DNA of 64,000 nt from an uncultured Anaerolineales bacterium (GTDB lineage Bacteria > Chloroflexota > Anaerolineae > B4-G1), in the NCBI GenBank assembly GCA_964450435.1, contig CAYVCX010000002.1, positions 43,760-107,759 of the forward strand. Direction: 5' to 3'. The position numbers were made by a program, and so were the translations under genes. The notes under the pieces are model-generated. The model searched no databases. It was given only the letters and a program-made list of their open reading frames with translations, and was not told the DNA's origin. Shown piece by piece: positions 39,918-59,571 of the stretch (position 1 is the stretch's first letter; each line of letters begins with the position of its first letter).

Positions 39918-39987
39918 CGTCGTCGGTTGGGGTTCCATCTTCCGTCTGACGAACCGATACTGAACACGGGGAGAACGAGCGAGAGCT

Positions 39988-41610: not shown

Positions 41611-41935
41611 CATCGCCAGAAGCAGCCGTCGGGCTTGCACGAGAATGCTGAGCAGAGCATCGACACAGGGCAGGAGGTAGGCCTGGCCGCACCAGCCGGA
41701 ACACGCAGACGGGGAGCCAGATTGTCCCCAGGCTGTGTGGGACGCAGTTGCCCCGGTGTCGGTTCTGTGGCAGAATGTCTGTGGCGGTTGTCGCTCCCGG
41801 TATGCTCCTTTGCTGAATAGGGTCAGCCAGAGCATATCGCGAGCCACCTGTCTCGAGAAGTGCGCGGCGGTGAACGCTGGTTTCCTGGCTTGGCACAGTG
41901 CTAACCCATCGTCCGACCTACGTACCAAGAGCCAA

Positions 41936-42211: not shown

Positions 42212-43410
42212 GCAAGGAGAACCAGGACCAGAACGGCGTGCTGTCAGGCGAGTTCTTCATGCAGGGGGACATTGCCTGCGCCGAGGGGGCTATCTGCGCT
42301 GGTTGTCGGTTCTTCGGTGGCTATCCGATTACGCCGGCCACCGAGGTGGCGCAGCGCATGAGCGAGCGCCTGCCGCTGGTGGATGGGATGTACATCCAGA
42401 TGGAGGATGAGCTGGCCTCGATCGGCGCGGTATTGGGGGCCTCCTGGGCCGGCGCGAAGGCTATGACGGCGACCAGCGGGCCAGGTTTCTCGCTGATGAT
42501 GGAGAACCTGGGCCTGGGCATCATGCTCGAGACGCCCTGCGTACTGATCAACGTTCAGCGCGGTGGTCCCTCCACTGGCCTGCCGACGCTTGCCGGTCAG
42601 GGGGACATGATGCAGGCCCGCTGGGGATCGCACGGGGACTATTCCATCATCGCGTTGGCGCCGTCCTCCCCGCAGGAGCTGTTCGACCTGACCATTCATG
42701 CCTTCAATCTCTCCGAAATCTACCGCACACCGGTGCTGGTGATGACTGACGCTGAGGTGGGGCATATGACCGAGAAGGTGGTCATTCCGCCGGCCGAGGA
42801 GATCGAGATTGTGGAGCGGCGGAAGCCCACGGTGGGGCCGGACGAGTACCGACCCTACTACGTAGAGTCGGGTGAGTGGGTGCCACCCATGGCTTCGGCC
42901 GGCGATGGGTATCACATCCACGTTACCGGTCTTACTCACGACGAGCGAGGCTATCCTGTCACGAGCGACGACAGCGCCCAGTGGCCGCTGGTGCAGCGGC
43001 TCATCGGAAAGATCGAGGAAAATAAGGATGACATCATAATCTTGGAGGAGGAGGGATTGGATGATGCCGAGGTGATCCTGGTATCCTACGGCATAGCCGC
43101 CCGCACATCTCTCTGGCCGATCCAGATGGCTCGCGAAGAGGGTATCCGGGTGGGGTTTCTGCGATTGGTGACAGTCTGGCCTTTCCCGGACAGGCACATC
43201 CGCACGCTGGCCGCACAGGTGAACGGGCTTGTCGTGCCGGAGATCAACATGGGACAGATCGTCCGCGAGGTCGAGCGCTGCGCTGCGGGCCAGGCAGAGG
43301 TGTTCCCGGTCTCCCACCCGGGCGGAGGCATCCACGACCCCCAGCAGGTGTTGAGCACCATTCGCGAGGCTGCGCGGTCTGGTGAGGAGACGCGACCGGC
43401 GTCCCAGTAG
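42208..43410 (+). CDS. korA: 2-oxoacid:ferredoxin oxidoreductase alpha subunit
   Basis: N-terminal motifs of Por/Kor alpha domain I (GNEA-like ACAEGAICAG, YPITPATE). Confidence 0.8.
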   Translation: MSKENQDQNGVLSGEFFMQGDIACAEGAICAGCRFFGGYPITPATEVAQRMSERLPLVDGMYIQMEDELASIGAVLGASWAGAKAMTATSGPGFSLMMENLGLGIMLETPCVLINVQRGGPSTGLPTLAGQGDMMQARWGSHGDYSIIALAPSSPQELFDLTIHAFNLSEIYRTPVLVMTDAEVGHMTEKVVIPPAEEIEIVERRKPTVGPDEYRPYYVESGEWVPPMASAGDGYHIHVTGLTHDERGYPVTSDDSAQWPLVQRLIGKIEENKDDIIILEEEGLDDAEVILVSYGIAARTSLWPIQMAREEGIRVGFLRLVTVWPFPDRHIRTLAAQVNGLVVPEINMGQIVREVERCAAGQAEVFPVSHPGGGIHDPQQVLSTIREAARSGEETRPASQ

Positions 43411-43424
43411 ATGGAGGCATAGCG

Positions 43425-44324
43425 ATGGTCTCGGAGACGAAGCACGATCCGCTGCCCAGCACGTTGGAGACAGACGGAAGGTCCCAGGGGTTGGACGAGG
43501 AGATTCACGGACGCCATCCGCTGGATGATCTGCTGCGCACCGAGCGTCTGCCGCACATCTGGTGTCCTGGCTGTGGGTTGGGGACGTCCTTGACCTGCTT
43601 CCTGAGTGCGCTGCGCAAATCGGAGCTGGATCTGGAGAAGACGGCTGTGGTCTCGGGAATCGGGTGCACCGGGCGGGTGGCGGGTTACGTCAAGTTGGAT
43701 TCCTTCCACACCACCCACGGGCGGGCCATACCCTTCGCCACCGGCCTGAAGCTGGGTAACCCGGAGTTGAAGGTGATCGTATTCTCCGGCGATGGCGATC
43801 TGGTGACCATTGGCGGCAATCACTTCATCCACGCTGCACGGCGCAACGTCGACTTGACCGTCATCTGCATCAACAACTTCAACTACGGGATGACGGGCGG
43901 CCAGGTCGGGGCGACGACACCCGTCGGCAGCATCACTACCACCTCACCGTACGGCAACTATGAGTACCCATTCAACGTTTCGGCCCTGGCGGCCTCGAGC
44001 GGCGCTGTGTATGTGGCGCGCTGGACGGTGCTCCACGCCCGGCGCCTGGAGCGCGCGATGACTGAGGCGTTGCTCAAACCGGGGTTCAGCCTGGTGGAGG
44101 TGATCTCGCCCTGCCCCACCGGGTTTGGTCGCCGTCACAGGCAGCGTGAGGGCCTGGACACGCTGCGGTACTATCGCGAGCACGGCGTGATCGATCACGA
44201 TGCTGACCTGCGCAGCGCGGACATCGGGCTGGGCAGCTCCTTCGTCGAGGGCAATTTTGTGAACATCGATAAGCCCACGTTCTTGGAGCAGCGGTCGGAG
44301 TGTTTGGCGCAGGCGCTGAAGTAA
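43425..44324 (+). CDS. korB: 2-oxoacid:ferredoxin oxidoreductase beta subunit (TPP-binding)
   Basis: Motifs WCPGCG and GDGD of the TPP-binding domain. Confidence 0.85.
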   Translation: MVSETKHDPLPSTLETDGRSQGLDEEIHGRHPLDDLLRTERLPHIWCPGCGLGTSLTCFLSALRKSELDLEKTAVVSGIGCTGRVAGYVKLDSFHTTHGRAIPFATGLKLGNPELKVIVFSGDGDLVTIGGNHFIHAARRNVDLTVICINNFNYGMTGGQVGATTPVGSITTTSPYGNYEYPFNVSALAASSGAVYVARWTVLHARRLERAMTEALLKPGFSLVEVISPCPTGFGRRHRQREGLDTLRYYREHGVIDHDADLRSADIGLGSSFVEGNFVNIDKPTFLEQRSECLAQALK

Positions 44325-44416
44325 CTCCGGTTCCGGGTCGGGCATGGCAGCTCGACCCGGGCTGGGTGAACATGCCTGAGTCGGCGTAGGGGGAGCTTGC
44401 AGGCAGGAGGCAAAAG

Positions 44417-45022
44417 TTGAATCGTCTGGAGATACGGCTGTCTGGTTTCGGTGGACAGGGGATTATCCGCAGCGGAGAGATCGTGGGCAGAGCGGCGACT
44501 CTCTACGACGGAAGGTATGCCACTTTCACGCAGAGCTACGGGCCGGAGTCCCGGGGCGGCGCTTGTGCGGCCCAGGTAATCATTGCCGATGATCCGGTGG
44601 AATTGAGCTATCCACACCTTGTGGATCCCGCGATTCTAATCATCATGTCGCAGGGGGCATATAATAAGTACGTCCCGGGCTTCCGGCGAGATGGGCTGCT
44701 CATCGTGGACGAGGAGCTGGTGGACCTGGACGAGGCGGCCGAGCACCTGCGCGTGATTGGCATCCCGGCCACGCGCCTGGCCGAGAGTCTGGGACGCCGC
44801 ATCGTGGCAAACGTGGTGATGCTGGGTTTCGTGGCCGCGATGACCGATATCGTCTCGGCGGAGGCTATGAAGAAGGCCGTGCTTGATTCGGTTCCGGAGG
44901 GGACGGAGGAGCTGAACACGCGCGCGTTTGAGGCGGGATTCGAGTATGCGCGGAAGCAGGGCTCGATAGACGACGTCGGGCGCAAAGACGATACCGAACG
45001 TAGCGCGCAAGGCGCGAAATGA
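44417..45022 (+). CDS. korC: 2-oxoacid:ferredoxin oxidoreductase gamma subunit
   Basis: Motif FGGQG at the N-terminus. TTG start after a GCAGGAGG RBS. Confidence 0.75.
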   Translation: MNRLEIRLSGFGGQGIIRSGEIVGRAATLYDGRYATFTQSYGPESRGGACAAQVIIADDPVELSYPHLVDPAILIIMSQGAYNKYVPGFRRDGLLIVDEELVDLDEAAEHLRVIGIPATRLAESLGRRIVANVVMLGFVAAMTDIVSAEAMKKAVLDSVPEGTEELNTRAFEAGFEYARKQGSIDDVGRKDDTERSAQGAK

Positions 45023-45061
45023 GGGCTACCACTCTGGAGGCGTGTTTCGTCGGCATATCAC

Positions 45062-46405
45062 ATGACCGGTGAAGAGGCTGATATGGTGGACACGGGACAT
45101 CTGGAGGATGAGCAACGGCCGACGGATGTCCTCGTCATCGGTGGGGGCATCGCCGGCATCCAGGCGTCGCTTGATCTGGCTGAGATGGGCGTGCGTGTGC
45201 ATCTGGTGGAGAAGAGCCCCACTATCGGCGGGCGCATGGCTCAACTGGACAAGACCTTTCCCACGAACGACTGCTCCACCTGCATCCTCTCGCCGAAGAT
45301 GGTCGAGTGCGACCGGCATCTCTATATTACGATCCATACCCTCTCGGAGGTCCAGGCCGTGACGGGTGAGGCGGGCGATTTCACGGTCCGGGTGTTGAAG
45401 AGAGCCCGCTTCGTGGATGAGCACGCCTGCACGTCCTGCGGCGACTGTGCCAAGGTGTGCCCCGTCGTCAGGCGGGATGAGTTCCAGATGGGTCTCTCAA
45501 CGCGGCGGGCAATCTACATCCCCTTCCCGCAGGCCGTACCCCAGGCGTACGTCAGAAATCCTGATGACTGCCTGGGCGACGAACCGATGGTGTGTGGGCG
45601 CTGCATCGAGGCGTGCAGCAAGGGCTGTGTCGACTTCGACATGCAGGACGAGATAATTGAGCTTTCGGTTGGTGCGATCGTAGTGGCGGTCGGTATGGAG
45701 ACATTCGATCCGGAGGCACTGACCGAGTACGGTTACACGCGCTATGATAATGTTATCACCGGCCTGGAGTTCGAGCGCTTGATCTGTGCCAGCGGACCCT
45801 CCGGTGGGCGTCTCATCCGCCTCACCGATCGCCAGGAGCCGAAGGTGATCGGTTTCATCCAGTGCGTTGGCTCCCGCAATCTCAAGTATCAGAGGTTCTG
45901 CTCCTCAGTCTGCTGCATGCACGCCACCAAGGAGGCCGTTCTCGCCCGCGAGCACATCCCGGATGTCCAGTCGCACATCTTCTACACCGACCTGCGCGCT
46001 TCTGGCAAGGGCTTCCGCCAGTACATTGACCGCGCCAGGGAGGAGTACGGCGTCGAATACATCCGCAGCCGCGTGGCGCAGATCGAGGAAGACGAGGACG
46101 GTCAGCTGGTCTTCCACTACGAGGACACGGCGACGTCCCGTCCTCAGGAGATGAGGGTCGATCTGGCTGTGCTGGCCACCAGTGTCATGCCGGGCCCGGG
46201 TGTGGCAACCCTGGCTGAGGTTCTCGGCCTCGAGTTGGACGAGTATGGTTTCTTCGAGACGAATCCCTTTTCGCCAGTGGACACCACGCGGGACGGAGTG
46301 TATGCCTGTGGGTGTTGTCGTGCTCCGGTTGACATTCCACAGGCGGTGGCTCAGGCCAGCGGTGCGGCGGCACGGGCGGCACAGGTGGTAGGCGCCAGGC
46401 GATGA
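45062..46405 (+). CDS. hdrA: HdrA-like FAD protein, short N-half type, with intact FPTNDCSTCILSPK motif
   Basis: Motifs VLVIGGGIAGIQAS and DKTFPTNDCSTCIL. Its stop overlaps the next start (ATGA). Confidence 0.8.
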   Translation: MTGEEADMVDTGHLEDEQRPTDVLVIGGGIAGIQASLDLAEMGVRVHLVEKSPTIGGRMAQLDKTFPTNDCSTCILSPKMVECDRHLYITIHTLSEVQAVTGEAGDFTVRVLKRARFVDEHACTSCGDCAKVCPVVRRDEFQMGLSTRRAIYIPFPQAVPQAYVRNPDDCLGDEPMVCGRCIEACSKGCVDFDMQDEIIELSVGAIVVAVGMETFDPEALTEYGYTRYDNVITGLEFERLICASGPSGGRLIRLTDRQEPKVIGFIQCVGSRNLKYQRFCSSVCCMHATKEAVLAREHIPDVQSHIFYTDLRASGKGFRQYIDRAREEYGVEYIRSRVAQIEEDEDGQLVFHYEDTATSRPQEMRVDLAVLATSVMPGPGVATLAEVLGLELDEYGFFETNPFSPVDTTRDGVYACGCCRAPVDIPQAVAQASGAAARAAQVVGARR

Positions 46406-48168
46406 TCGATACACCCCGTGTCGGCCTCTTCGTCTGCCACTGCGGCACCAACATCGCGGGCCACGTGGATGTGGAGGCTGTGGCCGACTACGGACGTACG
46501 TTGCCGGGCGTAGTCTTCGTCCAACGCAACCTGTACACCTGCTCCGACGCCGGCCTGCGGGAGATCAAGGAGGCCATCGCCAATGAGAGGTTGGATCGTG
46601 TGGTGGTCGCCGCGTGCACGCCTCGTACCCACGAGCCGCTGTTTCAGGAGGCGTGTCGTGAGGCGGACTTGAATCCCTACCTGCTCGAGTTCGTCAACAT
46701 CCGCGATCAGTGCTCCTGGGTCCATATGCAGGAGCCGGAGGCGGCTACCCAGAAGGCCCGGGATCTGGTGCGTATGGGAGTGGCTAAAGCGCATCTCCTG
46801 GAGCCACTGGAGGAGCACGAGGTGCCGGTGGAACCGGCGGCGCTGGTAATAGGTGGAGGAATGATCGGTATGACGGCAGCGCTCAGCCTGGCCAACCGCG
46901 GCTTCGCGGTCATGCTGGTGGAGCGCGAGCCAGAGCTGGGCGGTATGATGCTGCACCTGCACAAGCTCTACCCCACGCAGGAGGACGCACGGAAGGTGGT
47001 CCAGGAGCGCATCAGCCAGGTGCGGCGGCACGGCGGCATCGAAATCTTCACCTCTTCGGTTGTGAGCAGCGTAAAGGGCTTCGTGGGCAACTACGAAGTG
47101 ATGATCGAGGGAGTGGGGCCCGGGAAGGCTGGTGCTGCCGAGAGGACGGACGATCCTGGCCCGCCTGCCGACGCACCGGTCCATCGCTCCGCCACAGCCG
47201 GAGCCATCATCGTCGCCACCGGGACGAGCGTCCTTCAACCGGAAGGGATGTACGGCTACGACGGGAAGCGCGTCGTCACGCAGTTGGAGCTCGAGGAGCG
47301 CTTCAGGTCGGATGAGCTCGACGTGGACCGCGTCGTGATGATCCAGTGCGTGGGGGCCCGCTGTGCGGAGCGCCCTTACTGCTCCCGGATCTGTTGCACG
47401 ACGGCGATCAAGAATGCGCTGGAGATCAAGGACCGCTGTTCCGATGCGGAGGTCTACATCCTGTACCGGGATGCTGAGACGCAGGGCACGCGCTACGAGG
47501 CCTACTACGGCCAGGCCCGCGAGGCCGGCATCCAGTTCATCCGCTATGACACCGAGCGCCCGCCAGAGGTCCTGGAGGAGCGCGTATTGGTGTACGACGA
47601 GATGCTGGGGGCCAGGCTGAGCATTCCCTGCGATATGGTCGTGCTCTCCACGCCGTTGGTGGCCCCAGAGGGCGCGCATGAGCTGGCCCAGACGCTGAAG
47701 GTGCCCGTGGACGAGCACGGCTTCTTTCTGGAGGCCCACGTCAAGCTCCGGCCGCTGGATTTCGCCACCGACGGCATCTATGTGGCCGGCACCGCCCGTT
47801 GGCCCTCTCACCTGGAGGAGACGATCACCCAGGCCTATGGCGCGGCGGCGCGAGCGTCTACCATCCTCTCCAAGGAGCACGTCACATCATCGGGCATTGT
47901 GGCGCAGGTGGACGAGCATCTGTGCCGGGGCTGTGGCCGCTGTGTGGAAATCTGCGAGTTCGGTGCGCCGTCTCTGAAGGAGAGTTTGTCCGGGGGGAAC
48001 GTGGCTCACGTCAGTGCAGTGATGTGCAAAGGATGCGGAGCCTGTGCCTCGGTCTGTCCCACCGGCGCGATGCATGCCCGGCACTTCACGGATGAACAGG
48101 TCACCGCGATGGTCCGGGCGGCGCTCGAGCCGGCGCCGTCGTTTTTCGCCCTGGAGGCTGGTTCATGA
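46402..48168 (+). CDS. hdrA: HdrA (classical order) with a degenerate FAD-site motif (LHKLYPTQEDARKV)
   Basis: N-terminus VGLFVCHCGTNIAGHVDV, then GGGMIGMTAA, and C-terminal ferredoxin motifs (CRGCGRCVEICE, CKGCGACASVCP). Confidence 0.8.
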   Translation: MIDTPRVGLFVCHCGTNIAGHVDVEAVADYGRTLPGVVFVQRNLYTCSDAGLREIKEAIANERLDRVVVAACTPRTHEPLFQEACREADLNPYLLEFVNIRDQCSWVHMQEPEAATQKARDLVRMGVAKAHLLEPLEEHEVPVEPAALVIGGGMIGMTAALSLANRGFAVMLVEREPELGGMMLHLHKLYPTQEDARKVVQERISQVRRHGGIEIFTSSVVSSVKGFVGNYEVMIEGVGPGKAGAAERTDDPGPPADAPVHRSATAGAIIVATGTSVLQPEGMYGYDGKRVVTQLELEERFRSDELDVDRVVMIQCVGARCAERPYCSRICCTTAIKNALEIKDRCSDAEVYILYRDAETQGTRYEAYYGQAREAGIQFIRYDTERPPEVLEERVLVYDEMLGARLSIPCDMVVLSTPLVAPEGAHELAQTLKVPVDEHGFFLEAHVKLRPLDFATDGIYVAGTARWPSHLEETITQAYGAAARASTILSKEHVTSSGIVAQVDEHLCRGCGRCVEICEFGAPSLKESLSGGNVAHVSAVMCKGCGACASVCPTGAMHARHFTDEQVTAMVRAALEPAPSFFALEAGS

Positions 48169-48201
48169 TGCCCGTTGGATACCGGGCGTCGCGCATTCTC
48201 G

Positions 48202-48633
48202 ATGGGTGAGTTCCAGCCGCGCATCGTCGTCTTTGCCTGCAACTGGTGCTCCTACGCCGGGGCCGACCTGGCCGGCTCCAGCCGGATGCAGTACCCGGCT
48301 GCTACACGTGTCATCCGCGTGATGTGCTCCGGCCGCGTGACGCCCGGCTTCATTCTGGAGGCGTTTCGACTGGGGGCCGACGGCGTGCTGGTCACCGGCT
48401 GCCACCCCGGCGATTGCCATTACATCTCTGGGAACGAGAACGCCGTTGTCACCGTGGAGAAGACAGCGCGGCTGCTGGAGCTCCTGGGCCTCGAGGTCGA
48501 GCGGCTGCGCCTGGAGTGGATCTCGGCCGCCGAGGGGGCGCGCTTCGCGCGTCTGATGACGGAGTTCACCGGGCAGGTTCGCGAGTTGGGGCCGAGCTTG
48601 CTGGGAAATGGTGGCGCAGGACGTGAAGCCTGA
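48202..48633 (+). CDS. mvhD: MvhD paralog
   Basis: Motifs FACNWCSYAGADLAG and TGCHPGDCHY. Confidence 0.8.
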   Translation: MGEFQPRIVVFACNWCSYAGADLAGSSRMQYPAATRVIRVMCSGRVTPGFILEAFRLGADGVLVTGCHPGDCHYISGNENAVVTVEKTARLLELLGLEVERLRLEWISAAEGARFARLMTEFTGQVRELGPSLLGNGGAGREA

Positions 48634-48641
48634 AGCGCGAC

Positions 48642-49799
48642 ATGGACTTTGAGCACATCCTTCATCGAACTGGTGCCATCCTGTGCCTGGATTGCGGCAA
48701 GTGCACCGGGAGCTGCCCGGTGTCGCGGGTGGACGTGGCGTACTCGCCGCGCAGGACGATCGAACGTGTCCTGGCGGGTCAGCCGGAGGACTTGATCAAC
48801 GACCGCTATCTCTGGTCGTGTCTGACCTGCGGCCTCTGCACAACCCGCTGTCCTTCGGACGTCGACTACCCGGCCTTCGTCATCGCCGCCCGCATAGCGG
48901 CGCGCCGGGCGAGCGTGGAGGGACCTGCTGCTCACAACGCTGTCATGCAGCATTTGATGGGCATCATGACGCGGTCGATCAACCAGAACCGCACCAATTG
49001 GCTGACAGATGAACTGCAGACGGTGAGGCAGGGGGAAGACTTCTATTTCGTGGGATGTCTGCCGTATTTTGATGTTCTTTTTGAGGATCTGGGCGTCGTC
49101 TCGACCGACAGCGCCCGGAACGCGATACGCCTGATGAACGCTGTGGGCATCACGCCGGTGGTCAGCGACGACGAACGGTGCTGCGGTGCCGATCTCCTGC
49201 TCAACGGTGACGAGAGCGGTTTCCGCGAGCTGGCCAGACGCAACGTCGAGGTCATCGCGGAGAGCGGGGCCGCACGGGTAATCTTCACCTGCCCGGAGTG
49301 TTACAACGCCTTTCGAGAGAACTATCCGCGCTACGTCGGCTCGCTTCCTTTCCAGCCGGTCCACATTGCCGAGCTCCTGGCCGGTCATCTCGACGAGCTG
49401 GCGCTGGACGGGCTGGACGAGACGGTCACCTACCAGGATCCCTGTCGTCTGGGGCGCTACCAGGGGATTTATGAGGAACCGCGCGCGCTCATCGAAGCCA
49501 CCGGCGCGAATCTGGTCGAGATGCGCAAGAGCCGGGCCAATGCCGTCTGCTGCGGCTCTGTGGGCTGGGTAAGCTGCGGTCAGTGTGCCAAGGGTATTCA
49601 AGTGGCGCGGCTGCGTGAGGCGCAGGCCGCCGGCGCGGCCGCGCTGATCACAGCCTGTCCCAAGTGCCGCATCCATCTCAGTTGCGCTCTGAAGGACGCC
49701 GGCGATGAGGAGGATGAGCAGCAACCCATCGACGTTGTTCTGGAGGATCTGGCCCTGCTGCTCGTGCGTGCGATGCCCCCGGGTGAAATCGATGGCTAG
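48642..49799 (+). CDS. hdrD: HdrD-like fused HdrC-HdrB Fe-S protein
   Basis: Motifs CLDCGKCTGSCP and CLTCGLCTTRCP, followed by CCG domains. Confidence 0.75.
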   Translation: MDFEHILHRTGAILCLDCGKCTGSCPVSRVDVAYSPRRTIERVLAGQPEDLINDRYLWSCLTCGLCTTRCPSDVDYPAFVIAARIAARRASVEGPAAHNAVMQHLMGIMTRSINQNRTNWLTDELQTVRQGEDFYFVGCLPYFDVLFEDLGVVSTDSARNAIRLMNAVGITPVVSDDERCCGADLLLNGDESGFRELARRNVEVIAESGAARVIFTCPECYNAFRENYPRYVGSLPFQPVHIAELLAGHLDELALDGLDETVTYQDPCRLGRYQGIYEEPRALIEATGANLVEMRKSRANAVCCGSVGWVSCGQCAKGIQVARLREAQAAGAAALITACPKCRIHLSCALKDAGDEEDEQQPIDVVLEDLALLLVRAMPPGEIDG

Positions 49800-49863
49800 G
49801 ATGAGAATCAGTTGAAACGGGCTGGCGGTGTCACCTGCTTGAGCAGGTTAGAGATACCAGCCT

Positions 49864-50406
49864 GTGAACGCTTCGCAGAAGGCGGGAATGACCGACGCTA
49901 CGGAATCAGTCTTCGACGTTAGCACCTTCGCCCCCGGCTTCCGCGACGAAATCGCGGCCGAGCGGGGCGGGGGGCACATCCGGCGCTGCTTCTCGTGCAG
50001 CACGTGCACTGCCGGCTGTCCGGTGGCCAGCGTCACCGACAAGTACAATCCCCGCCGCATCGTCCACATGGCGCTGCTGGGGATGCGCGACCAGGTGTTG
50101 ACCAGCGATTTCATCTGGCTCTGCTCGGTCTGCTACACGTGCTACGAGCGCTGCCCGCAGGACGTGCGCGTCCCGGAGCTGATGAACGCCATCCGCAACA
50201 TCGCCGTGCGGGAGGGGTGTGTCCCTCCGACCTTCACAAGACAGATAGAACAACTGCGGGACCACGGTCGGCTCTTGGAGATTGGCGACTACGAGAACGA
50301 GCGGCGGGCGCGCTACGGGCTGCCTCCCATTGAAGAAGCGGCGCTGGAGGTGCGCGAGATCTTGAACAGAACGCGCCCCCAGAAGCGTTCGGAGGACGGG
50401 CCGTGA
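49864..50406 (+). CDS. hdrC: Heterodisulfide reductase subunit C
   Basis: Motifs CFSCSTCTAGCP and CSVCYTCYERCP. It overlaps the hdrB start by 4 nt. Confidence 0.8.
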   Translation: MNASQKAGMTDATESVFDVSTFAPGFRDEIAAERGGGHIRRCFSCSTCTAGCPVASVTDKYNPRRIVHMALLGMRDQVLTSDFIWLCSVCYTCYERCPQDVRVPELMNAIRNIAVREGCVPPTFTRQIEQLRDHGRLLEIGDYENERRARYGLPPIEEAALEVREILNRTRPQKRSEDGP

Positions 50407-51335
50407 GCGGGCGATACGCGCTGTACCTGGGCTGTTCCGTCCCGGTGCGCGGGATGAACTACGAGATGTCGGCGCGCCGGGTAGCCGGGCAGCTCGACAT
50501 CGAGTTGAAGGACATTGATGGCTTCACCTGCTGCGGCTTTCCGGCCAGGCCCCTGGACTGGGAGGCAGGGCTGCTTATGGCCGCCCGCAACCTGGCCCTG
50601 GCCGAGGCGCAGGGGCTGGACATCCTGACGCTCTGCAGCGCCTGCACAGGGACGCTCACCGAGGCCAACCATGGACTCCGCGATGACGCTGAGCTTCTTG
50701 CGTGGGCCAATGAGGAGTTGGCCGATATGGGCCATCGGAACTCGGCGCCCCCACCAGAGGCTTATCGGGGAACGGTGCGCGTGCGTCACTTCGCCCGGGT
50801 GTTGTACGAGGAGGTCGGGGTCGAGACTCTGCGCAAAGAGGTCGCGGCAAGCGCAGGCGGCGAGCAGCTACTGCAGGGTTTCCGATTTGCACCGCACTAC
50901 GGATGCCACTACTTGAAGCCCTCTCATATCTACGACGGGTTCGATGATCCAGAGAATCCGCAGAGCCTGGATCGGCTCATTGAAGCCACCGGCGCGGGTG
51001 TGGTGCGCTACGAGGACGAGGGACAGTGCTGCGGGGGCGGCCTCCTCGGATTCGACGAGGCGACGGCGCTGCTGATGACGGGTCAGAAGCTGGAGCACGT
51101 GACTGAGGCCGGGGCTGACGCGATGGTGCTCGTCTGTCCGTTCTGCGCTATTATGTACGAGGCGAACCAGCGGCGGGTGGAGAAGCTCCACGGGGCCAGT
51201 TACGGACTGCCGGTGCTCTATTACCCGCAGATCCTCGGCCTGGCGATGGGCTTCTCCATGGAGGAAATGGGGATCAAGCTGAACCGGGTGAAGCCCCGCA
51301 AGTTGATCGAAACGTTGCGTGCAAGGGAAGGATGA
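50403..51335 (+). CDS. hdrB: Heterodisulfide reductase subunit B
   Basis: Motif YLGCS followed by CCG domains (CCGFP, CCGGGL, CPFC). Confidence 0.8.
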   Translation: MSGRYALYLGCSVPVRGMNYEMSARRVAGQLDIELKDIDGFTCCGFPARPLDWEAGLLMAARNLALAEAQGLDILTLCSACTGTLTEANHGLRDDAELLAWANEELADMGHRNSAPPPEAYRGTVRVRHFARVLYEEVGVETLRKEVAASAGGEQLLQGFRFAPHYGCHYLKPSHIYDGFDDPENPQSLDRLIEATGAGVVRYEDEGQCCGGGLLGFDEATALLMTGQKLEHVTEAGADAMVLVCPFCAIMYEANQRRVEKLHGASYGLPVLYYPQILGLAMGFSMEEMGIKLNRVKPRKLIETLRAREG

Positions 51336-51405
51336 AGGGCAGGAATCACGCGAGGGGATATGGCTGGTCCGTAGGCAGTCCCTCTCGTGTTGAGGAGGTG
51401 CGACA

Positions 51406-54015
51406 TTGGGCGATAACGAGCTAGAGAGAGGCGACGCTGTCCGCATCGGCGTCTTCGTCTGCGACTGCGGCCTGAACATCGCTGGCAGCGTGGACACCGC
51501 CGCCGTGCGAGAGTATGCTGAGTCTCTGCCGGACGTGACGGTGGCGGTGCGCAATCGCTACACCTGCGCCGATCCCGGGCAGCAAGAGATCAAGCAGACG
51601 ATCGTGGAGCACAACCTCAACCGGGTGGTGGTCGCTTCCTGCTCGCCCCGGCTCCACGAGCCCACCTTCCGGCACTGCGTGAGTGAGGCAGGCCTCAATC
51701 CCTACCTGTTTGAGATGGCCAACATCCGCGAGCACTGCGCCTGGGTCCACCTCCAGGATCGCGAGGCGGCCACGCGCAAGGCCAAGGATATCGTCCGGGT
51801 GGCCGTGGCTCGCGCCCGCTGGCTGCACGCTCAGGACGAGGAGCGGTTTCCAGTCACCGACGCAGCGCTGGTCATTGGCGGAGGCGTCGCCGGCATCCAG
51901 GCTGCCCTCGACCTGGCCGATGCCGGTCACCAGGTCTACCTGGTGGAAAAAGAACCGTCCATCGGGGGGATCATGGCGCGACTGGACAAGACGTATCCCA
52001 CAATGGACTGTAGCATATGAATCCTCGGCCCCAAAATGATGGATGTCGGTCGACATCCAAAGATCGAATTGATGGCCTACAGCGAGGTCGAGGACGTCTC
52101 CGGCTACGTCGGTGATTTCAGGGTGCGGGTACGGCGAAAAGCCCGCTATGTCGATGAGGCCGAATGCACCGCCTGCGGGGACTGCTCCGACGTCTGCCCC
52201 GTCGTCATGCCGGATGGGTTTCAGGCCGGCCTCTCCACCCGCCGGGCGATCTACATCCCCTTCCCCCAGGCCGTCCCCTCGTCCTACATCGTCAACGCGG
52301 ACGAGTGTCTGGGCAGCAACCCGATCGCCTGCGGTAAGTGCGTCGAAGCGTGCGACAAGCAGTGCATCGATTTCGATATGCAGGATGAGATCGTGGAGCT
52401 GCAGGTGGGCGCTGTCATCGTTGCCACCGGCATGGAGACCTACGATCCCACGCCCCTGGACGAGTACGGCTACACCAGCTACGAGAATGTGGTCACCAGC
52501 CTGGAGTTTGAACGACTGATCTCGGCGGAGGGGCCGACCGAGGGGCATTTCGTTCGGCCTTTGGATCGAGAGCAGCCCCGGCGCGTCGGCTTCGTGCAGT
52601 GCGTCGGCTCGCGAACCTTGCCCTCGCAATCGAACCCCGAGGGACAGCGCGGCAACCCGTACTGTTCCAACATCTGCTGCATGAACACTGTCAAGGACAG
52701 CCTGCTGCTCAAGGATCATTACCCGGACACGGACATCACGGTCTTCTACATGGACATCCGCGCCTTTGGCAAGGGCTTTGAAGATCTCTATCGGCGCTCG
52801 AAAGCTCAGGGCGTCCGCTACATCCGCGGCCTGCCGGGCGAGGTGGAGGAGGATCCGGGGACGGGGAATCTCACCGCGTACGTAGAGAACACCACCACCA
52901 GCCTCCTGGAGGAGCACGAGCTGGACATGCTGGTGCTTTCTATAGGCGCTGTTCCCCGAACGGAGACCGATCCGGTGCGCCAGCTTCTGACTCTGTCCGT
53001 CAGTGAGGATGGCTTTCTGATGGAGGCTCATCCCAAGCTGAAGCCGGTAGACACCCCGACTAAGGGGGTCTACATTGCCGGCTGCGCAGAGGCGCCCAAG
53101 GACATCAAGGACTCGGTCACCCAGGCGAGCGCGGCCGCCGCGCGCGCCGAGGTGCTGCTCAACGCGCCGCAGATCGCGGTGGAGGCGATCACGGCTGTGG
53201 TGGACGAGGATCTGTGCAAGCAGTGCGGGCAGTGTGCCGAGGTGTGCCCCTTCTCGGCCATCGTCTGGGAGAAGAAGCAGACAGCCCGCGTCATCAGTGC
53301 AGCGTGCGCTGGCTGCGGCACCTGCGCCGCGGAGTGCCGCTTCGATGCCATTACGATGCGGCACTTCACCGATCAGCAGATCTACGCTATGGTCGACGCC
53401 ATTCTGGATGACGACCCGGTGGACAAAGTGGTCGCCTTCGCCTGCAACTGGTGCTCGTACGCCGGCGCCGACACAGCCGGTACGTCGCGCCTGCAGTATC
53501 CTCCCAACGGCTATGTCATCCGCACCATGTGCTCCGGGCGTGTCAAGCCAGACTTCGTGTGGCATGCCTTCCAGAAAGGAGCGCCCGTCGTGCTGGTATC
53601 AGGTTGTCATTACGCTGATTGTCACTACATCGACGCCAACCGCAACGCGGTGCGCCGCGTGGACGCACTGTGGGAAGGACTGGAGAAGCATGGCGTCGAC
53701 CCACGGCGGCTCCAGCTTGATTGGTGCAGCGCGGCCGAGGGGCAGAAATGGGCCAGGATCATGCGGGAGCTTGAGGGTCTGCGGGCCGGCGTGACAGATG
53801 AAGAAGTTGAGGAGGCCAGGGATGCGCTGAAGGGCCAGCGAGTGCCCCGCCGCAGCGAAGTCTGGCGGCTGAAGGGGCCAACCGCGGCCAGTATGATCTG
53901 CTATCGCTGCGGCAACGAGTGGGAGGACACGTTCGACCCGTCCGCCGACCGGGAGCGGATGTGCCCGTCCTGCCGCAGCAACAGCGTGCGGGTGCTGCCG
54001 GACGGGAGGGAATAG
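51406..54015 (+). CDS. hdrA: HdrA-MvhD fusion with an in-frame TGA (52018-52020) at the second Cys of the DKTFPTxDCxxCIL motif; putative selenoprotein (869 aa if read through). Also carries a C-terminal zinc ribbon
   Basis: Listed ORFs 51406-52020 and 52036-54015 share a frame with no other stop. The local sequence is DKTYPTMDCSI-[TGA]-ILGPKMMDVG. A SECIS-like hairpin with a GGTC apical loop lies 20 nt downstream. The C-terminal 200 aa is an MvhD domain (FACNWCSYAGADTAG, GCHYADCHY). TTG start after a GAGGAGGTG RBS. Confidence 0.65.
52041..52058 (+). promoter_or_regulatory. SECIS-like hairpin GGATGTC-GGTC-GACATCC downstream of the in-frame TGA
   Basis: A perfect 7-bp stem with a GGTC apical loop, the same loop sequence as the E. 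coli fdhF SECIS. Read directly from the sequence. Confidence 0.45.
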
Positions 54016-54205
54016 GAGGGTTCGCACCTCTCTTGCGCTCGCGGCGCGGCGCACGGCGCGCCCATCGAGCCGACCCCGATCGAGGCGCTGTCCGCCCTCC
54101 TGGCCGACTGTTCTTGGGTTGGGCCTGATCGTCGCCGTCTTCGCCGGCTGTACCGTCCGTAAGTTCACCCGATAGACCAGACCATCTCACTGGAGGATTG
54201 GAACC

Positions 54206-55510
54206 GTGAACCAAGAACCGACCTTTGACCAGCTCTACGCCCGCCTGGACGACCTTCTGGCGCCCTGCCTGGCTCAGGACTGGCCCAATATGCCCGGGGC
54301 ATGGGCCGAGGGCGTCTACATGTACGACCGCGACGGCAAGCGCTATCTCGACTTCCTTGCCGGCTTCGGCGCATGCAACGCCGGGCACAACCATCCGCGC
54401 ATCATGGCCGCGGCCATGGAACAGATGAAGCACATGGTCCATGCTCCGGTCGGGGTGATAGCCCACGAACCCCTGCTGAGGCTCGCCCACGAGCTCGCGA
54501 AAGTCGTCCCGGGCGGGGCCGACATGTTCTTCTTCGGGAACAGCGGCTCCGAGGCCGTTGATGGCGCCATCAAGCTCGCTCGCTACGTGACCGGACGGCC
54601 GGGCCTGATCGCCTTCCTGGGCAGCTTCCACGGGCGCACCATAGGTGCCTCCAGTGTCACTGCCTCCAAGGTGAAGTACCGCCAGGGCCATGGCCCCTTC
54701 CTCCCGGACACCTACTTCGCCCGCTTCCCCTACCCCTTCCGCTCCCTCGCCCCCGACGATGAGGCCTGCGTTCAGGAGGCCCTGGGGGACATCCATCGCC
54801 TCTTCGAGTACGTCGTCCCGCCGCAGGACGTGGCTGCCGTCCTCGTCGAGCCCATCCAGGGGGAGGGGGGCTACATCTTCCCGCCCCGAAGCTGGCTGGA
54901 GGCGCTGCGTGCCATCTGTGACGAGCACGGGATCTTCCTGGTCTTCGATGAGGTCCAGACCGGCTTCGGACGTACCGGGGAGTGGTTCGCGGCCGATGTC
55001 TACGACGTCCAGCCTGACGTCGTCTGCCTGGCCAAGGGCATCGCCAACGGCTTCCAGCTCGGCGCCGTGGCGGCTCCCGGCGACGTCATGGCCCGCTGGG
55101 GCCCTGCATCCCACGGCACCACCTACGGCGGCAATCCCGTCGCCTGCGCCGCCGCCCTCGCCACCCTGGACGTCATCCGCGAGGAGGGCCTCCTGGAGAA
55201 TGCCCGGGAGCAGGGGGAGTACATGCTCGAAGCCCTCCGCGACCTGCAGGCCCGGTCGCCCATCGTCGGTGACGTGCGCGGCATCGGCCTGATGCTCGCC
55301 GTCGAGTTCATCGAACCCGGGACCGCTAGAGAGCCGCATACAGAGGCCGTGCGCCGCATCCTGGACCGCTGTCTTCAGGATGGGCTGCTCATGTACCCCT
55401 GCGGCCACTGGACCCAGACCATCCGCCTCATCCCGCCGCTCACCATCACCCGCAGGCAGGTCGACGAAGGCCTCGACATCTTCCGCCGCGCCGTCCTGGC
55501 CGAGAGCTAG
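54206..55510 (+). CDS. Class III pyridoxal-phosphate aminotransferase (acetylornithine / 4-aminobutyrate aminotransferase family)
   Basis: Motifs DFLAGFGACNAGH and GSEAVDGAIKLAR, plus PLP-lysine region features. GTG start after a GGAGGA RBS. Confidence 0.75.
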   Translation: MNQEPTFDQLYARLDDLLAPCLAQDWPNMPGAWAEGVYMYDRDGKRYLDFLAGFGACNAGHNHPRIMAAAMEQMKHMVHAPVGVIAHEPLLRLAHELAKVVPGGADMFFFGNSGSEAVDGAIKLARYVTGRPGLIAFLGSFHGRTIGASSVTASKVKYRQGHGPFLPDTYFARFPYPFRSLAPDDEACVQEALGDIHRLFEYVVPPQDVAAVLVEPIQGEGGYIFPPRSWLEALRAICDEHGIFLVFDEVQTGFGRTGEWFAADVYDVQPDVVCLAKGIANGFQLGAVAAPGDVMARWGPASHGTTYGGNPVACAAALATLDVIREEGLLENAREQGEYMLEALRDLQARSPIVGDVRGIGLMLAVEFIEPGTAREPHTEAVRRILDRCLQDGLLMYPCGHWTQTIRLIPPLTITRRQVDEGLDIFRRAVLAES

Positions 55511-55644
55511 CTGGATGACTACGACCCTTGGGGTTTCGTGATGCCCTGCGCTGGGCCAGCTCCCCTGCTGGCCCGCAGCGACACACCTGTCCGGGGCTTG
55601 CTCGAAACCCTGAGGGTCTTTTGTCCGGGCTGCCGCCCATTCCT

Positions 55645-55672
55645 TGTCCCCCATCCCTGCCTGTGCTACAAT
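55645..55672 (+). promoter_or_regulatory. Weak sigma70-like promoter candidate (TTGTCC, 16 nt spacer, TGcTACAAT) upstream of the hydrogenase genes
   Basis: An extended -10-like element in the 277-bp gap before the hydrogenase small subunit. Confidence 0.2.
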
Positions 55673-55787
55673 TCAGGACGTGCTCCTGCTGGATGACAAT
55701 CCAGCAGCTTCGCTGATAGCAGACTCGCCCGAAGACGACCACTCACCGTGGTTGCCGCCGCTGTTGCACGCATCGACCGAGGAGATT

Positions 55788-56636
55788 ATGGAGCGATTTG
55801 CCGTACTCCAGCTTTCCGGCTGCGCTGGATGCGAGGTCGCGCTCCTCAACGCCGGGGACTGGGTGGAGAAGCACCAGCTCACCTACATGCCCCTCATCAT
55901 CTCGGCCTACGATGTGCCGGAGGTCGAGACGCTGCTGGTGAGCGGCGGCGTGCGCACCGAGGAGGACCACTACAACCTGCGCCAGGCGGTCCGCTGTGCG
56001 GATCGGGTCGTGGCTGTCGGCACCTGCGCCATCTCGGGCGGCGTGGCCAGCCTGGGCAACCGGGATGAGGTGCGCGAGATTTTCCTCGCCGAGGAGGAGC
56101 GGCGCCACGTCCCGCGCCTGCTCCCCCGCTGCCGTCCCATCGACGCCGTCGTCGAGGTCGATCTCTACGTGCCCGGCTGCCCTCCCACGCCAGAGCTCTT
56201 CATGGCCATGCTCTCCGACGATCCCGACTTCCAGCCCGGCAGAAACGTCTGCCGGGAGTGCGGGCGCAAGAAACTCCGCGATATGCGCCCTCAGCACCTG
56301 ACCGGGTTTCAGAAAGGCGAGGTACTGCCCGACATCTGCCTCATCAACCAGGGCTATCTCTGTGTCGGCTCCTCGGTACGCGGCGGCTGCCGCGCCCTCT
56401 GTACCCGTCCCGGACATCAGTGCGTTGGCTGCCGCGGGCCGTCCGATGCCTTCATAGAGAAGGAGGCCGAGGCCTGGTTGACCAGCATCAAGCGCGTCTT
56501 CGAGTCAATGACCGACATTCCGGAGGAGGAGCTCGATCGAGAGCTGCGCTCGCCCCAGCTGGCGCTCTTCCTCTTTCAGTTCTCCGACTATGCCGCGCCG
56601 GAGCGCCCGCCCAGACCCAAGGAGAAGATGCTCTGA
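55788..56636 (+). CDS. mvhG: NiFe hydrogenase small subunit (MvhG-like, group 3 type)
   Basis: Motifs LSGCAGCEVALL and VGTCAISGG, and distal Cys clusters at the C-terminus. A GAGGAG RBS precedes the ATG at 55788. Confidence 0.75.
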   Translation: MERFAVLQLSGCAGCEVALLNAGDWVEKHQLTYMPLIISAYDVPEVETLLVSGGVRTEEDHYNLRQAVRCADRVVAVGTCAISGGVASLGNRDEVREIFLAEEERRHVPRLLPRCRPIDAVVEVDLYVPGCPPTPELFMAMLSDDPDFQPGRNVCRECGRKKLRDMRPQHLTGFQKGEVLPDICLINQGYLCVGSSVRGGCRALCTRPGHQCVGCRGPSDAFIEKEAEAWLTSIKRVFESMTDIPEEELDRELRSPQLALFLFQFSDYAAPERPPRPKEKML

Positions 56637-56637
56637 C

Positions 56638-57963
56638 ATGGCCACCCTCACCTTTCCCCTGAGCCGCATCGAAGGGCATGCCCGGGTGGTCATCGAAGTG
56701 CACGGCGGGGAGATCGTCTCCGCCCATTTCGAGGCCATGGAGATTCGCGGTTTCCGCTACTTCGTCCTCGGCGTCCCCGCCGAGCAGATGCCCACCATCG
56801 TGCCGCGCATCTGCGGCGTCTGCTCCACCGCCCACCACGTGGCCGCCGTCGAGGCCCTGGAGGACGCCTTCGACGTCACGCCGCCGAACCTGGCCCGCAC
56901 GATCCGCGAGCTCCTCCTCCTGGGCCAGATCATCCAGAATCAGGCCACCTCGGTCTTCCTCTTCACCATGCCGGATCGGCTCGGCCTTTCCAGCATGTTC
57001 CTGCCCGGCGACGAGGCCGGCCGCGAGCGCGACCGGGCTGTGCTGGCCACCCGGGCTCTGCGGGTGCGCCAGGCCGGCACCGACCTGATCTCCCTGGCTG
57101 GCGGTCAGTTCATCCATCCCATCAAGGCTGTCGTCGGTGGGGTGACCAGCGGCATCGAGCCCCAGGCCGCGTCCGACCTGCGGGACCAGCTGATCGAGAC
57201 CATCCCGGTGGCCTGCGAGCTGTTCGACTACTACTGGGAGCAGTCGTACGCCCTCCGGGATCGCATCGGCACCTGGGGCGACGACGCCCCTGCCCATTAC
57301 ATCACCGCCACCGCCGATCACTGCCCCAACTATGACGGTGTCGGTGCCGAGCCCATCATCCGTGTGCTGGATCCCAACAGTATGGCGTGTGAGACCTTCT
57401 CCGTTCGTTCCTTTCGTGAGGTCCTCACCTTCGAGGAGACCGATTACAGCTATGCCGGCCGCACCAGCTACCAGGGCCACGTGATGCGGGCCAACAGCCT
57501 GGCGCGCGTCAACATGACCGACCATTTCGGCACCCCGTGCGCGGACCGCTACCTGAAGCGCTTCCGAGAGGCCTTCGGTCATCCGGCTCACGCCATTCTG
57601 CTCTACGACCTGGGGCGCGGCATCGAGTTGGCCTACGCTCTGGAGCGGGCCGTCGAGATCCTGCAGCAGCCCCTTGACCGGGGGGAGTCCGCTGTCCCTC
57701 ATACCCCCCGCGACGGGGAGGGATACGGCCTGGTGGAGGCACCCCGCGGCCCTCTCATCCACCGCTACCGCATCCGGGACGGCCTCATCGACGATGCCGA
57801 CTTCATCATCCCCACCGTGCACAACGCCCTGGCTATCGAGCGCGCGCTCCGTGTGGCGGCCCGGCGCTACATCACCCCGGAGCGCGTCGATATGGAGCTG
57901 GAGCGCGCCGTGGGACGCGTGGTCCGCGCCTTCGATCCCTGCATCGCCTGCGCCACCCATTGA
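56638..57963 (+). CDS. mvhA: NiFe hydrogenase large subunit (MvhA-like). It ends at the His of the C-terminal DPCxxCxxH motif
   Basis: Motifs RIEGH and RICGVCS near the N-terminus. C-terminal DPCIACATH is followed directly by the stop. The start lies 1 nt after the small-subunit stop. Confidence 0.85.
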   Translation: MATLTFPLSRIEGHARVVIEVHGGEIVSAHFEAMEIRGFRYFVLGVPAEQMPTIVPRICGVCSTAHHVAAVEALEDAFDVTPPNLARTIRELLLLGQIIQNQATSVFLFTMPDRLGLSSMFLPGDEAGRERDRAVLATRALRVRQAGTDLISLAGGQFIHPIKAVVGGVTSGIEPQAASDLRDQLIETIPVACELFDYYWEQSYALRDRIGTWGDDAPAHYITATADHCPNYDGVGAEPIIRVLDPNSMACETFSVRSFREVLTFEETDYSYAGRTSYQGHVMRANSLARVNMTDHFGTPCADRYLKRFREAFGHPAHAILLYDLGRGIELAYALERAVEILQQPLDRGESAVPHTPRDGEGYGLVEAPRGPLIHRYRIRDGLIDDADFIIPTVHNALAIERALRVAARRYITPERVDMELERAVGRVVRAFDPCIACATH

Positions 57964-58169
57964 TCGGCGCAGCTTTGGCTCGCCAGCGCCGGCCCCGGAC
58001 GGCGGCTCTGCCGCCCGCCGGGTTCACAACGTAGGGCGGATTCGTCATCCGCCGGGATCATTGACAGAGCCGTGTGGGACCAGCTTCCTGCCTGCGCTGG
58101 CCCGGGCCCGCCCGCGGCGGGCTTGCGGCTGGGCCCCACCCGCCATCGGCCGCCCAGGAGCACATCACC

Positions 58170-59000
58170 ATGAGAGACGCCACCCTCACCACCGTCGGCC
58201 GTCCCATCGACCTCAGCTACCCAACCAACCGGGCCATCGCCATCATAACCCTCCTCGTTATGCTTGGCGCCGTCCTTCTCCAGCGCATCGCCGGATCCGC
58301 CTGGCCTCAGAGCGTCCTCTGGGGCGCCCAGGCTGCCCTCTCCACCTTCCTGGCCTGGGCCCTCTGCCGCGAGCTCGACCCCGACCACCAGCTCTCCGCC
58401 TTCGTCGCCGTCCCTTTCACCCTGGCCGGCCTGCTCCTCTGGGGCCTGCCGCGCCTCGGCGTCATCTTCTGGCTGATCTTGACCGTGCGCGTCGTGAACC
58501 GCACCATGGGGCCGCCCGCCAGTCTCCTCGACTCCCTGGCCGTCCTCGCCCTCGGCATCTGGCTCTCCCTCCCGGGCAACTGGGGCTACGGCCTCACCAC
58601 CGCCCTCGCCTTCTTCCTCGATGGCCGACTCCCCACCCGGGTTCCTCGCCAGCTCATCTTTGCTCTCCTTGGCGTGCTGGCCACGGCGGCCGCGGCAGTC
58701 TTCGGCGCGGACCCTCCCTGGGAGCGTGCGCCTTCCCCCCTCGGCGTCCTCATCGCCGTCGGCATCTCCGTCCTCTTCGTCCCCGTGATCGCCGAAGCCG
58801 GAACAGTCTCCAGCGTGGGCGATCGGACCGGCCAACCCCTGGAGCCAACCCGCGTCCGTGCCGCCCAGCTCATCGCCCTCCTGGTCGGTGTGCACACCGC
58901 CTTCCTGGGTGGGCTCGCGGCCCCTGGAGCGCTTACGCCCCTCTGGTCCGCCGCCCTCGGCGCCTCGCTCTACCGCCTCTACCGGGCCCTCAACCCATGA
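58170..59000 (+). CDS. Integral membrane protein (multiple predicted TM helices), function unknown
   Basis: A GC3-rich frame with hydrophobic segments. An AGGAGC RBS is present. The overlapping alternative-frame ORFs were judged spurious. Confidence 0.4.
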   Translation: MRDATLTTVGRPIDLSYPTNRAIAIITLLVMLGAVLLQRIAGSAWPQSVLWGAQAALSTFLAWALCRELDPDHQLSAFVAVPFTLAGLLLWGLPRLGVIFWLILTVRVVNRTMGPPASLLDSLAVLALGIWLSLPGNWGYGLTTALAFFLDGRLPTRVPRQLIFALLGVLATAAAAVFGADPPWERAPSPLGVLIAVGISVLFVPVIAEAGTVSSVGDRTGQPLEPTRVRAAQLIALLVGVHTAFLGGLAAPGALTPLWSAALGASLYRLYRALNP

Positions 59001-59286
59001 CCCCCGGGTGAGCTTGCTGGAGCACAGACTGCCGCTTCCCGCCGGCGCCCCCACTCAATCTGCCCGCACAACCGTGTGGCCGCCCTCCCGCAGGGCCCTT
59101 CGCGCCCCAAGAACCCCACCTGGCCTCCGGTACACATATCTCCCAACTGTGGTATAGTCCACCTGGAACCCGGCCAGCGGGCCAGAACCGGCCGCCGAGA
59201 ACCCCTGGACACTGCCCGGGCGGCCGTGAGGCATCGTCCAGACACTCGCTGGGACAGGTAAGCAGTCCATTGAGAAGGAGAACAGA

Positions 59287-59571
59287 ATGCTTCGCAGAAG
59301 AAACGTGAAAAACGCCAACCAGGTCAAGGTCTCATTTGCCCTGCCCGAGCAGCACCCCCATGCGACCGACGCCTACGTCGCGGGTTCATTCAACGATTGG
59401 GATCCGCGGGGCCACCCTCTGATCCACCGCAGCAACCAGACCTACAGCGCGGTCGTGACCCTGGCTAAAGGCCAGCGCTACGCCTACCGCTACGTCTCCG
59501 GTGACGGCCAGTGGTTCAACGCCGGCGACGCCGACCACTACGAGGGACAGAACGGTATCCTCGTCGCCTGA
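59287..59571 (+). CDS. Small CBM48 / AMPK-beta glycogen-binding-domain-like protein (94 aa)
   Basis: Motif VSFALPEQHPHATDAYVAGSFNDWD ... YRYVSGDGQWFN resembles the carbohydrate-binding E-set domain at the N-terminus of GH13 enzymes. An AAGGAGAA RBS is present. Confidence 0.45.
   Translation: MLRRRNVKNANQVKVSFALPEQHPHATDAYVAGSFNDWDPRGHPLIHRSNQTYSAVVTLAKGQRYAYRYVSGDGQWFNAGDADHYEGQNGILVA

Follow-up and report, generated by a model that had tools for sequence, protein, structure and literature searches.

Why does the large subunit of a hydrogenase that most resembles MvhA end at the very residue behind which MvhA, made as a preprotein, has its C-terminal sequence clipped off, namely the last residue of the motif DPCxxCxxH (PMC3087415)? 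This question is raised by a gene pair, here referred to as hydS and hydL, in a stretch of 64,000 nucleotides from an uncultured Anaerolineales bacterium (assembly GCA_964450435.1, contig CAYVCX010000002.1, positions 43,760 to 107,759). This stretch is called the window in the following, and all coordinates refer to it. The two genes and the elements that matter most for the question are these:

55788-56636, + strand: hydS, small subunit of 282 residues, MvhG/VhuG-like, without a twin-arginine translocation (Tat) signal
56638-57963, + strand: hydL, large subunit of 441 residues, ATG start, no C-terminal extension
56806-56835, + strand: L1 metal-binding motif RICGVCSTAH (RxCGxCxxxH), present as R[IV]CGVCS[TS]AH in 120 of 120 homologues
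57934-57960, + strand: L2 metal-binding motif DPCIACATH (DPCxxCxxH)
57961-57963, + strand: TGA stop, the next codon after the motif His

A hydrogenase gene pair without a maturation peptide

The translation of hydL ends with RAFDPCIACATH. Its final residues are DPCIACATH, and the TGA stop follows without any intervening codon, just as the initial annotation had described this open reading frame (ORF). The motifs RIEGH and APRG were also found in HydL. Only 1 nt lies between the hydS stop and the hydL ATG, and both genes are preceded by Shine-Dalgarno-like sequences (GAGGAG 4 nt 5' of hydS and AAGGAG 12 nt 5' of hydL). The assigned start of hydS agrees with a protein-collection entry of 282 residues that is identical to HydS.

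The pair had been described as MvhGA-type, and both subunits indeed have MvhA and MvhG as their nearest matches in the PDB and VhuA and VhuG in NCBIfam. HydL matches the Pfam family NiFeSe_Hases and HydS the family Oxidored_q6. The top PDB match of HydL is MvhA (5odc_F, E-value 2e-59), where residues 6-441 of the query align with residues 7-448 of a chain of 473, and its further matches include the NiFe hydrogenase large subunit 7t2r_D and the NAD-reducing hydrogenase chain 5xf9_D. HydS matches MvhG best (5odc_E, E-value 1e-39), the alignment running over residues 3-228 and taking in the C-terminal Cys-rich region, in which the medial and distal clusters are bound. Twelve Cys residues can be assigned from the HydS translation, four to the proximal cluster (GCAGC, GTCA, GCPP) and eight to the C-terminal region. 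The N-terminus of HydS aligns with residue 3 of MvhG and carries no Tat signal, and the enzyme is therefore taken to be cytoplasmic. Judged by these features of its sequence, HydSL is an MvhG/MvhA-like cytoplasmic [NiFe] hydrogenase. The label 'Mvh-type' holds for ancestry but not for a demonstrated function, since the scores against the top NCBIfam models remain far below the equivalog cut-offs (199.8 bits against 800 for HydL and VhuA, 136.5 bits against 450 for HydS and VhuG), and linkage to hdr or mvhD genes is exceptional, as detailed below. An AlphaFold model of HydL from a 12-sequence alignment was too poor to be used (pLDDT 49.9).

The absence of the extension is shared by a whole clade

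The end of HydL could be an artefact, the stop being either a sequencing error, as the initial annotation had considered, or a TGA that encodes selenocysteine (Sec) and hides the extension. The stop codon is TGA, the organism evidently decodes Sec, the window has in-frame TGAs in HdrA and in one MvhD where Cys is conserved, and a GC-rich hairpin lies 3' of the hydL stop. However, when the C-termini of the closest homologues were compared, as the initial annotation had suggested, none of the top 120 database sequences (62-100% identity) was found to have an extension. All of them stop at the same residue, which is His in 115 and Gln in 5 of them, and the named sources among them are Chloroflexota or Anaerolineae metagenome-assembled genomes (MAGs). 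The genomic loci give the same picture. We sampled 36 loci in species-representative genomes and 80 in metagenomes. Of these, 115 are non-duplicate, and each of the 115 stops at this residue (107 His, 8 Gln), an agreement far greater than chance would produce. The stop codon is TGA in 68 loci, TAA in 25 and TAG in 22, meaning that 47 of the 115 end with a codon other than TGA. Three-frame translation of the 120 nt 3' of the hydL stops revealed no conserved peptide in any frame, and close relatives soon meet additional stops, within a few codons downstream of the hydL end. A sequencing error is excluded by the common end of all 115 loci, and read-through of the TGA into a hidden extension is excluded by the mixed stop codons together with the lack of a conserved downstream frame. 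The probability of an artefact of either kind is therefore negligible.

The metal-binding Cys residues are kept in 120 of 120 homologues, and the mean column identity among 12 aligned clade members amounts to 81%. Both observations fit a functional enzyme that is kept by purifying selection. The extension-less state is a lineage trait of Anaerolineae and not a peculiarity of the source genome. This tempers the initial view of the HydL end as unusual, because HydL belongs to a discrete subgroup in which such an end is the norm.

The motif His is replaced by Gln (…CATQ followed by the stop) in homologues P0022, P0026, P0029, P0030, P0054 and P0121 and in 8 of the 115 loci. This replacement is found in at least two sub-clades.

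Loss of the extension within group 3

With HMMER, 1.84 billion sequences that represent clusters at 50% identity were scanned in full. Only one full-length sequence among them, P0121, belongs to the clade (61% identity, 604 bits); P0124 ranked next among the full-length matches (43% identity, 335 bits), followed by Mvh-like proteins with at most 37% identity. Among the full-length representatives, the Mvh-like proteins of about 460-480 residues have C-terminal extensions of 17-34 residues, and the shorter group 3b-like proteins have extensions of 4-10 residues. This bears out the initial statement that Mvh relatives carry an extension. Neighbour-joining with 111 sequences recovers the clade as monophyletic (bootstrap 100/100), with P0124, which ends with DLCVSCATH plus 19 residues, as its sister (bootstrap 100/100). 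Clade and sister together are nested in a superclade of long-extension proteins that also holds MvhA (5odc) and 7t2r_D. Since the clade lies among extension-bearing relatives and its sister keeps a tail of 19 residues, the tail was lost once, on the stem of the clade. The clade is restricted to Anaerolineae; the record titles of all 36 loci sampled in species-representative genomes name MAGs of Anaerolineae, Anaerolineales, Pelolinea, Ornatilinea or Chloroflexota. In the sister sequence P0124, DLC takes the place of DPC.

Nine other full-length group 3 representatives also end at the motif His (P0195, P0210, P0230, P0238, P0249, P0257, P0259, P0265 and P0266). These are scattered over the tree, which suggests that the extension was lost several times, independently, within group 3. 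Such repeated loss lowers the surprise of finding a tail-less HydL.

In the group 3 large subunits P0222 (616 residues) and P0263 (583 residues), the extension runs on into a fused domain with the motif (N)RSDDG(T/A)G. By this motif we take the fused C-terminal domain to be HycI-like, in which case the two proteins would be natural hydrogenase-protease fusions.

Comparison with known hydrogenases

The closest known systems are MvhAG and VhuAG of methanogens (group 3c, 5odc). The alignment of HydL with mature MvhA runs from end to end, the layout of the proximal, medial and distal Cys residues is shared, and the enzymes are alike in being cytoplasmic and free of a Tat signal. They differ in that MvhA chains of 472-473 residues have the motif His at position 448 and continue for 24-25 residues beyond it, whereas HydL has none. 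The same applies to 7t2r_D, which runs for 25 residues past the motif His. In addition, the MvhADG operon carries mvhD and hydSL does not, and the hydSL clade is bacterial, restricted to Anaerolineae and only rarely linked to hdr genes. The alpha subunit of the Pyrococcus/Thermococcus sulfhydrogenase (group 3b; 9nez, 5yxy) resembles HydL as a subunit of a soluble group 3 enzyme with about 428 residues and a very short tail. However, it retains an extension of 4 residues (His424 of 428), belongs to a four-subunit, NADPH-linked enzyme and is less similar to HydL (E-values of about 1e-38 to 1e-39).

Large subunits that end at the His or Arg of DPCxxCxx[H/R] are known from H2 sensors (groups 2b and 2d), CO-dehydrogenase-linked enzymes (4c), Ech (4e) and group 4g (PMC7294309), in line with the initial remark that Ech/Coo-type and some other hydrogenases have no extension. 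According to a second source, the C-terminal step is skipped only by sensory and Ech hydrogenases (PMC6769069). Group 3 is absent from both lists (PMC6769069, PMC7294309); the listed enzymes belong to group 2 or to the membrane-bound group 4, whereas HydSL is a soluble, Mvh-like group 3 enzyme.

The best-known extension-less soluble enzymes are regulatory hydrogenases (PMC6769069, PMC7294309), which raises the possibility that HydSL, like those of group 2b, signals the availability of H2 and carries no metabolic flux. At a few loci, genes for GAF-domain proteins or histidine kinases are indeed located within several kb. However, the clustering of neighbouring genes identified no consistently adjacent kinase. 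Moreover, the top similarity is to Mvh and not to group 2, the 60 PDB matches listed name no sensor chain of that group, and the cluster layout of HydS is the complete three-cluster one of MvhG. A sensory role is therefore highly improbable, and we rejected it for want of a consistent kinase neighbour.

A 'group 3e' was proposed in a 2021 preprint on Chloroflexi for hydrogenases found only in Anaerolinea, proximal to groups 3c and 3d, with a small subunit, without accessory or electron-transfer genes, and with possible unidentified partners (10.1101/2021.08.23.457424). Every one of these descriptors fits the hydSL clade, which is restricted to Anaerolineae, divergent, 3c/3d-proximal and equipped with a small subunit only. 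The window differs by the hdr genes just upstream of hydSL, an atypical arrangement. The text of the preprint is silent on the C-terminus (10.1101/2021.08.23.457424). The two clades are very probably the same, and our analysis then adds to 'group 3e' that the whole clade is extension-less.

A proposed route to a protease-free hydrogenase

Taken together, we consider it likely that hydSL encodes a stand-alone, two-subunit cytoplasmic [NiFe] hydrogenase which is specific to Anaerolineae, descends from Mvh-like (group 3c/3d-proximal) ancestors, has lost its propeptide and matures without a protease. The ancestor of the clade lost the C-terminal propeptide, and HydL is since translated in an 'already processed' form, ending at the His behind which other enzymes are cleaved. 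HypABCDEF would insert NiFe(CN)2CO as they do in H2 sensors, Ech and CooH, and neither an endopeptidase of the HycI/HybD type nor a proteolytic checkpoint would be needed. The NiFe site would then split or form H2, and electrons would cross the three [4Fe-4S] clusters of HydS to a partner encoded outside any fixed operon.

For the protease-free maturation of HydL we infer a mechanism with precedent in the regulatory, Ech and CooH enzymes. The naturally extension-less enzymes of groups 2b, 2d, 4c, 4e and 4g are still Hyp-dependent, and extension-less enzymes are presumed or have been shown to be matured by Hyp proteins without an endopeptidase (PMC7294309). No Hyp or HycI families were detected among the window ORFs scanned, which lie mainly on the + strand. 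A tblastn search of the locus flanks gave no match to the endopeptidase domains of P0222 and P0263, and an ORF of 172 residues beside the P0124 gene is not an endopeptidase.

Several considerations weigh against this proposal. Deletion of the extension by engineering in several enzymes (soluble hydrogenase (SH) HoxH, E. coli Hyd-2) resulted in protein that lacks Ni (PMC7294309). Maturation without a protease does not, therefore, come about automatically, and the HydL lineage must have adapted to the loss. The search for endopeptidases in the locus flanks is a weak test with two queries only; the evidence on hyp genes covers the window ORFs scanned, and that on endopeptidase genes covers these ORFs and the flanks. 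The neighbour-joining tree carries no HydDB reference labels. Lastly, the assignment of the hydSL clade to 'group 3e', though very probable, is by description and not by shared sequences.

Gene neighbourhood and possible electron partners

The further features that bear on the function of HydSL are the following:

53425-53778, + strand: MvhD (FlpD) domain nearest to hydS, C-terminal in HdrA, candidate docking site
54206-55510, + strand: class-III aminotransferase (Aminotran_3) upstream of hydS, in this position in about 10 loci of the closest sub-clade only
55644-55672, + strand: promoter-like site TTGTCC-17-TACAAT with TG in the spacer between the aminotransferase gene and hydS, consensus match only
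58074-59000, + strand: multi-pass membrane protein just 3' of hydL, conserved hypothetical without a family match, seen there in about 13-14 loci, only in the closest sub-clade

The initial annotation had noted that the pair is not organised as mvhDGA, and this proved correct. Four separate MvhD copies (18648-19088, 25824-26231, 30879-31310 and 48169-48633) and the C-terminal domain of HdrA make up the five copies in the window, and the aminotransferase gene separates the nearest of them from hydS. It would nevertheless be conceivable that HydSL has the classical Mvh role, in which it would be the H2-oxidising module of bifurcating Hdr complexes, docked on an MvhD domain (the HdrA-fused one or the four others) and reducing ferredoxin for the Wood-Ljungdahl pathway. 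The nearest matches of both subunits, MvhA and MvhG, would fit this role, as would the location of HdrCBA-MvhD on the same strand 1.8 kb upstream of hydS, which recurs in locus L014, and the fact that the ORFs scanned in this 64-kb Wood-Ljungdahl/Hdr cluster include five MvhD domains but no second hydrogenase.

The comparison with other loci speaks a different language. MvhD or Hdr genes are located at most 8 kb away in only 3 of the 115 loci. In L001 and L005, which are the nearest (77-79% identity) of the relatives on long contigs, the pair belongs to a common syntenic block consisting of a fumarase gene, genes for a four-subunit Kor-type 2-oxoacid:ferredoxin oxidoreductase (OFOR), the aminotransferase gene, hydS, hydL, and genes for the membrane protein, a CBM48 protein and a major facilitator superfamily (MFS) transporter. 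The window has the same block (fumarase 39964-41522, OFOR 41891-45022, and the remainder from 54206 on). Here, and likewise in L014, about 9 kb of hdr-like genes (45023-54015; two HdrA-like proteins, MvhD, HdrD-like, HdrC, HdrB and HdrA-MvhD) separate the OFOR genes from the aminotransferase gene, which are adjacent in L001 and L005. The hdr/mvhD linkage in the window thus looks like a local insertion. The promoter-like site located 115 nt 5' of hydS also counts against a classical Mvh role; 2 such sites were found in the region 54000-59400 where 0.3 were expected, and from this consensus match hydSL may be its own transcription unit. Furthermore, bacterial MvhD-HdrA modules often work without any hydrogenase. 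We therefore regard the classical Mvh role as possible, albeit doubtful, and the context across the clade argues against an obligatory partnership with Hdr.

The pair itself is the only constant of this neighbourhood. hydS is located upstream of hydL in every locus with at least 900 nt of upstream sequence, and the gene for the sister sequence P0124 also forms an isolated hydSL pair. Clustering of 1183 neighbouring ORFs revealed no universal partner gene beyond hydS, each of the other families being present in at most 14 of 120 loci. The link that recurs is the one to OFOR genes. These were found upstream in 10 of the 53 loci whose upstream sequence is known for 3 kb or more, directly abutting hydS in 5 of them, and they represent two architectures (four-subunit Kor-type and two-subunit alpha-gamma/beta). 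HydSL could accordingly be ferredoxin-linked and coupled to OFOR, either evolving H2 from the oxidation of 2-oxoacids or amino acids, or using H2 for reductive carboxylation or as an antioxidant reductant. The Kor-type OFOR and fumarase genes upstream of the inserted hdr block in the window would agree with this, and so would the genes for a flavodiiron protein, rubrerythrin or a ferredoxin-thioredoxin-reductase/rubredoxin fusion at some loci. On the other hand, about 80% of the informative loci have no OFOR nearby, a ferredoxin-binding subunit is not evident, and direct coupling to ferredoxin is not established for soluble Mvh-like enzymes. Such an OFOR-coupled function is consequently unlikely.

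What the minority but recurrent OFOR link and the occasional flavodiiron or rubrerythrin genes point to is a ferredoxin-level electron pool, and the OFOR/redox-gene neighbourhood in a more distant sub-clade hints that a supply of reductant under oxidative stress may be involved. For the stand-alone hydrogenase favoured here, the likeliest partner in the source genome might be the low-potential pool of the Wood-Ljungdahl cluster, reached via the MvhD domain of HdrA 1.8 kb upstream or via ferredoxin. A bolder version of this idea would see in HydSL a new physiological class, a minimal protease-free heterodimer that serves as a plug-in H2 module and exchanges electrons with ferredoxin-level partners (OFOR, flavodiiron protein/rubrerythrin, MvhD-fused Hdr) without a dedicated third subunit. 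This we consider decidedly unlikely.

Other features of the loci

In a distant sub-clade, the two-subunit OFOR genes abut hydS with gaps of 13-151 nt (L002/L019, L029 and L030). The neighbours in L002/L019, L029, L030, L049, L121 and L015 include genes for glutaredoxin, a ferredoxin-thioredoxin-reductase/rubredoxin fusion, nitroreductase, OsmC, and rubrerythrin or flavodiiron protein. In the closest sub-clade, the membrane protein gene 3' of hydL is followed by the genes for the CBM48 protein and the MFS transporter. Two GC-rich hairpins are located right after the hydL stop at 57964-58025 (-36.8 kcal/mol, z -1.75). They have no T-tract and are not conserved in relatives.

Positions 1-38800 of the window hold a Wood-Ljungdahl/Hdr supercluster with genes for CdhD/AcsCD, RACo, a CooC-like ATPase, a pterin-binding methyltransferase, FolD and two MetV-MetF pairs, as well as several giant HdrA-like flavoproteins of up to 1530 residues. 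Two genes of the window are broken by in-frame TGA codons. In the HdrA-MvhD gene (51406-54015), the TGA at 52018-52020 lies within DCSI[TGA]ILGPKM and an 8-bp hairpin follows 22 nt 3' of it. In the MvhD copy at 30846-31370, the TGA at 31101-31103, again with a hairpin 3' of it, occupies a position that is Cys in the other four copies of the window. This copy reads VAG[TGA]LEGECHY where the copy at 48169-48633 reads GCHPGDCHY, and simple ORF finders split the TGA-bearing gene. From their sequences, the TGA-bearing HdrA and MvhD are probably selenoproteins.

Implications for hydrogenase maturation

The absence of a C-terminal extension from HydL is real and lineage-wide, and it is only moderately surprising. 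HydL is a tail-less soluble group 3 enzyme outside the standard lists and for this reason a natural experiment of use to those who study maturation. It is a variant of known biology and not a system of a new kind. Proteolysis at the C-terminus is regarded as a near-universal last checkpoint in the maturation of [NiFe] hydrogenases, and the exceptions on the lists are sensors and membrane-bound enzymes of group 4. A large and conserved soluble Mvh-like family that dispenses with proteolysis, and whose sister keeps a tail of 19 residues, would be a natural comparison for the role of the extension. The findings also call for caution in annotation, because the name 'F420-non-reducing (Mvh) hydrogenase' implies a partnership with Hdr that is unsupported by the context of 112 of the 115 loci. 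Finally, HydSL should be simpler to express heterologously, as it would need the Hyp proteins only and no cognate protease.

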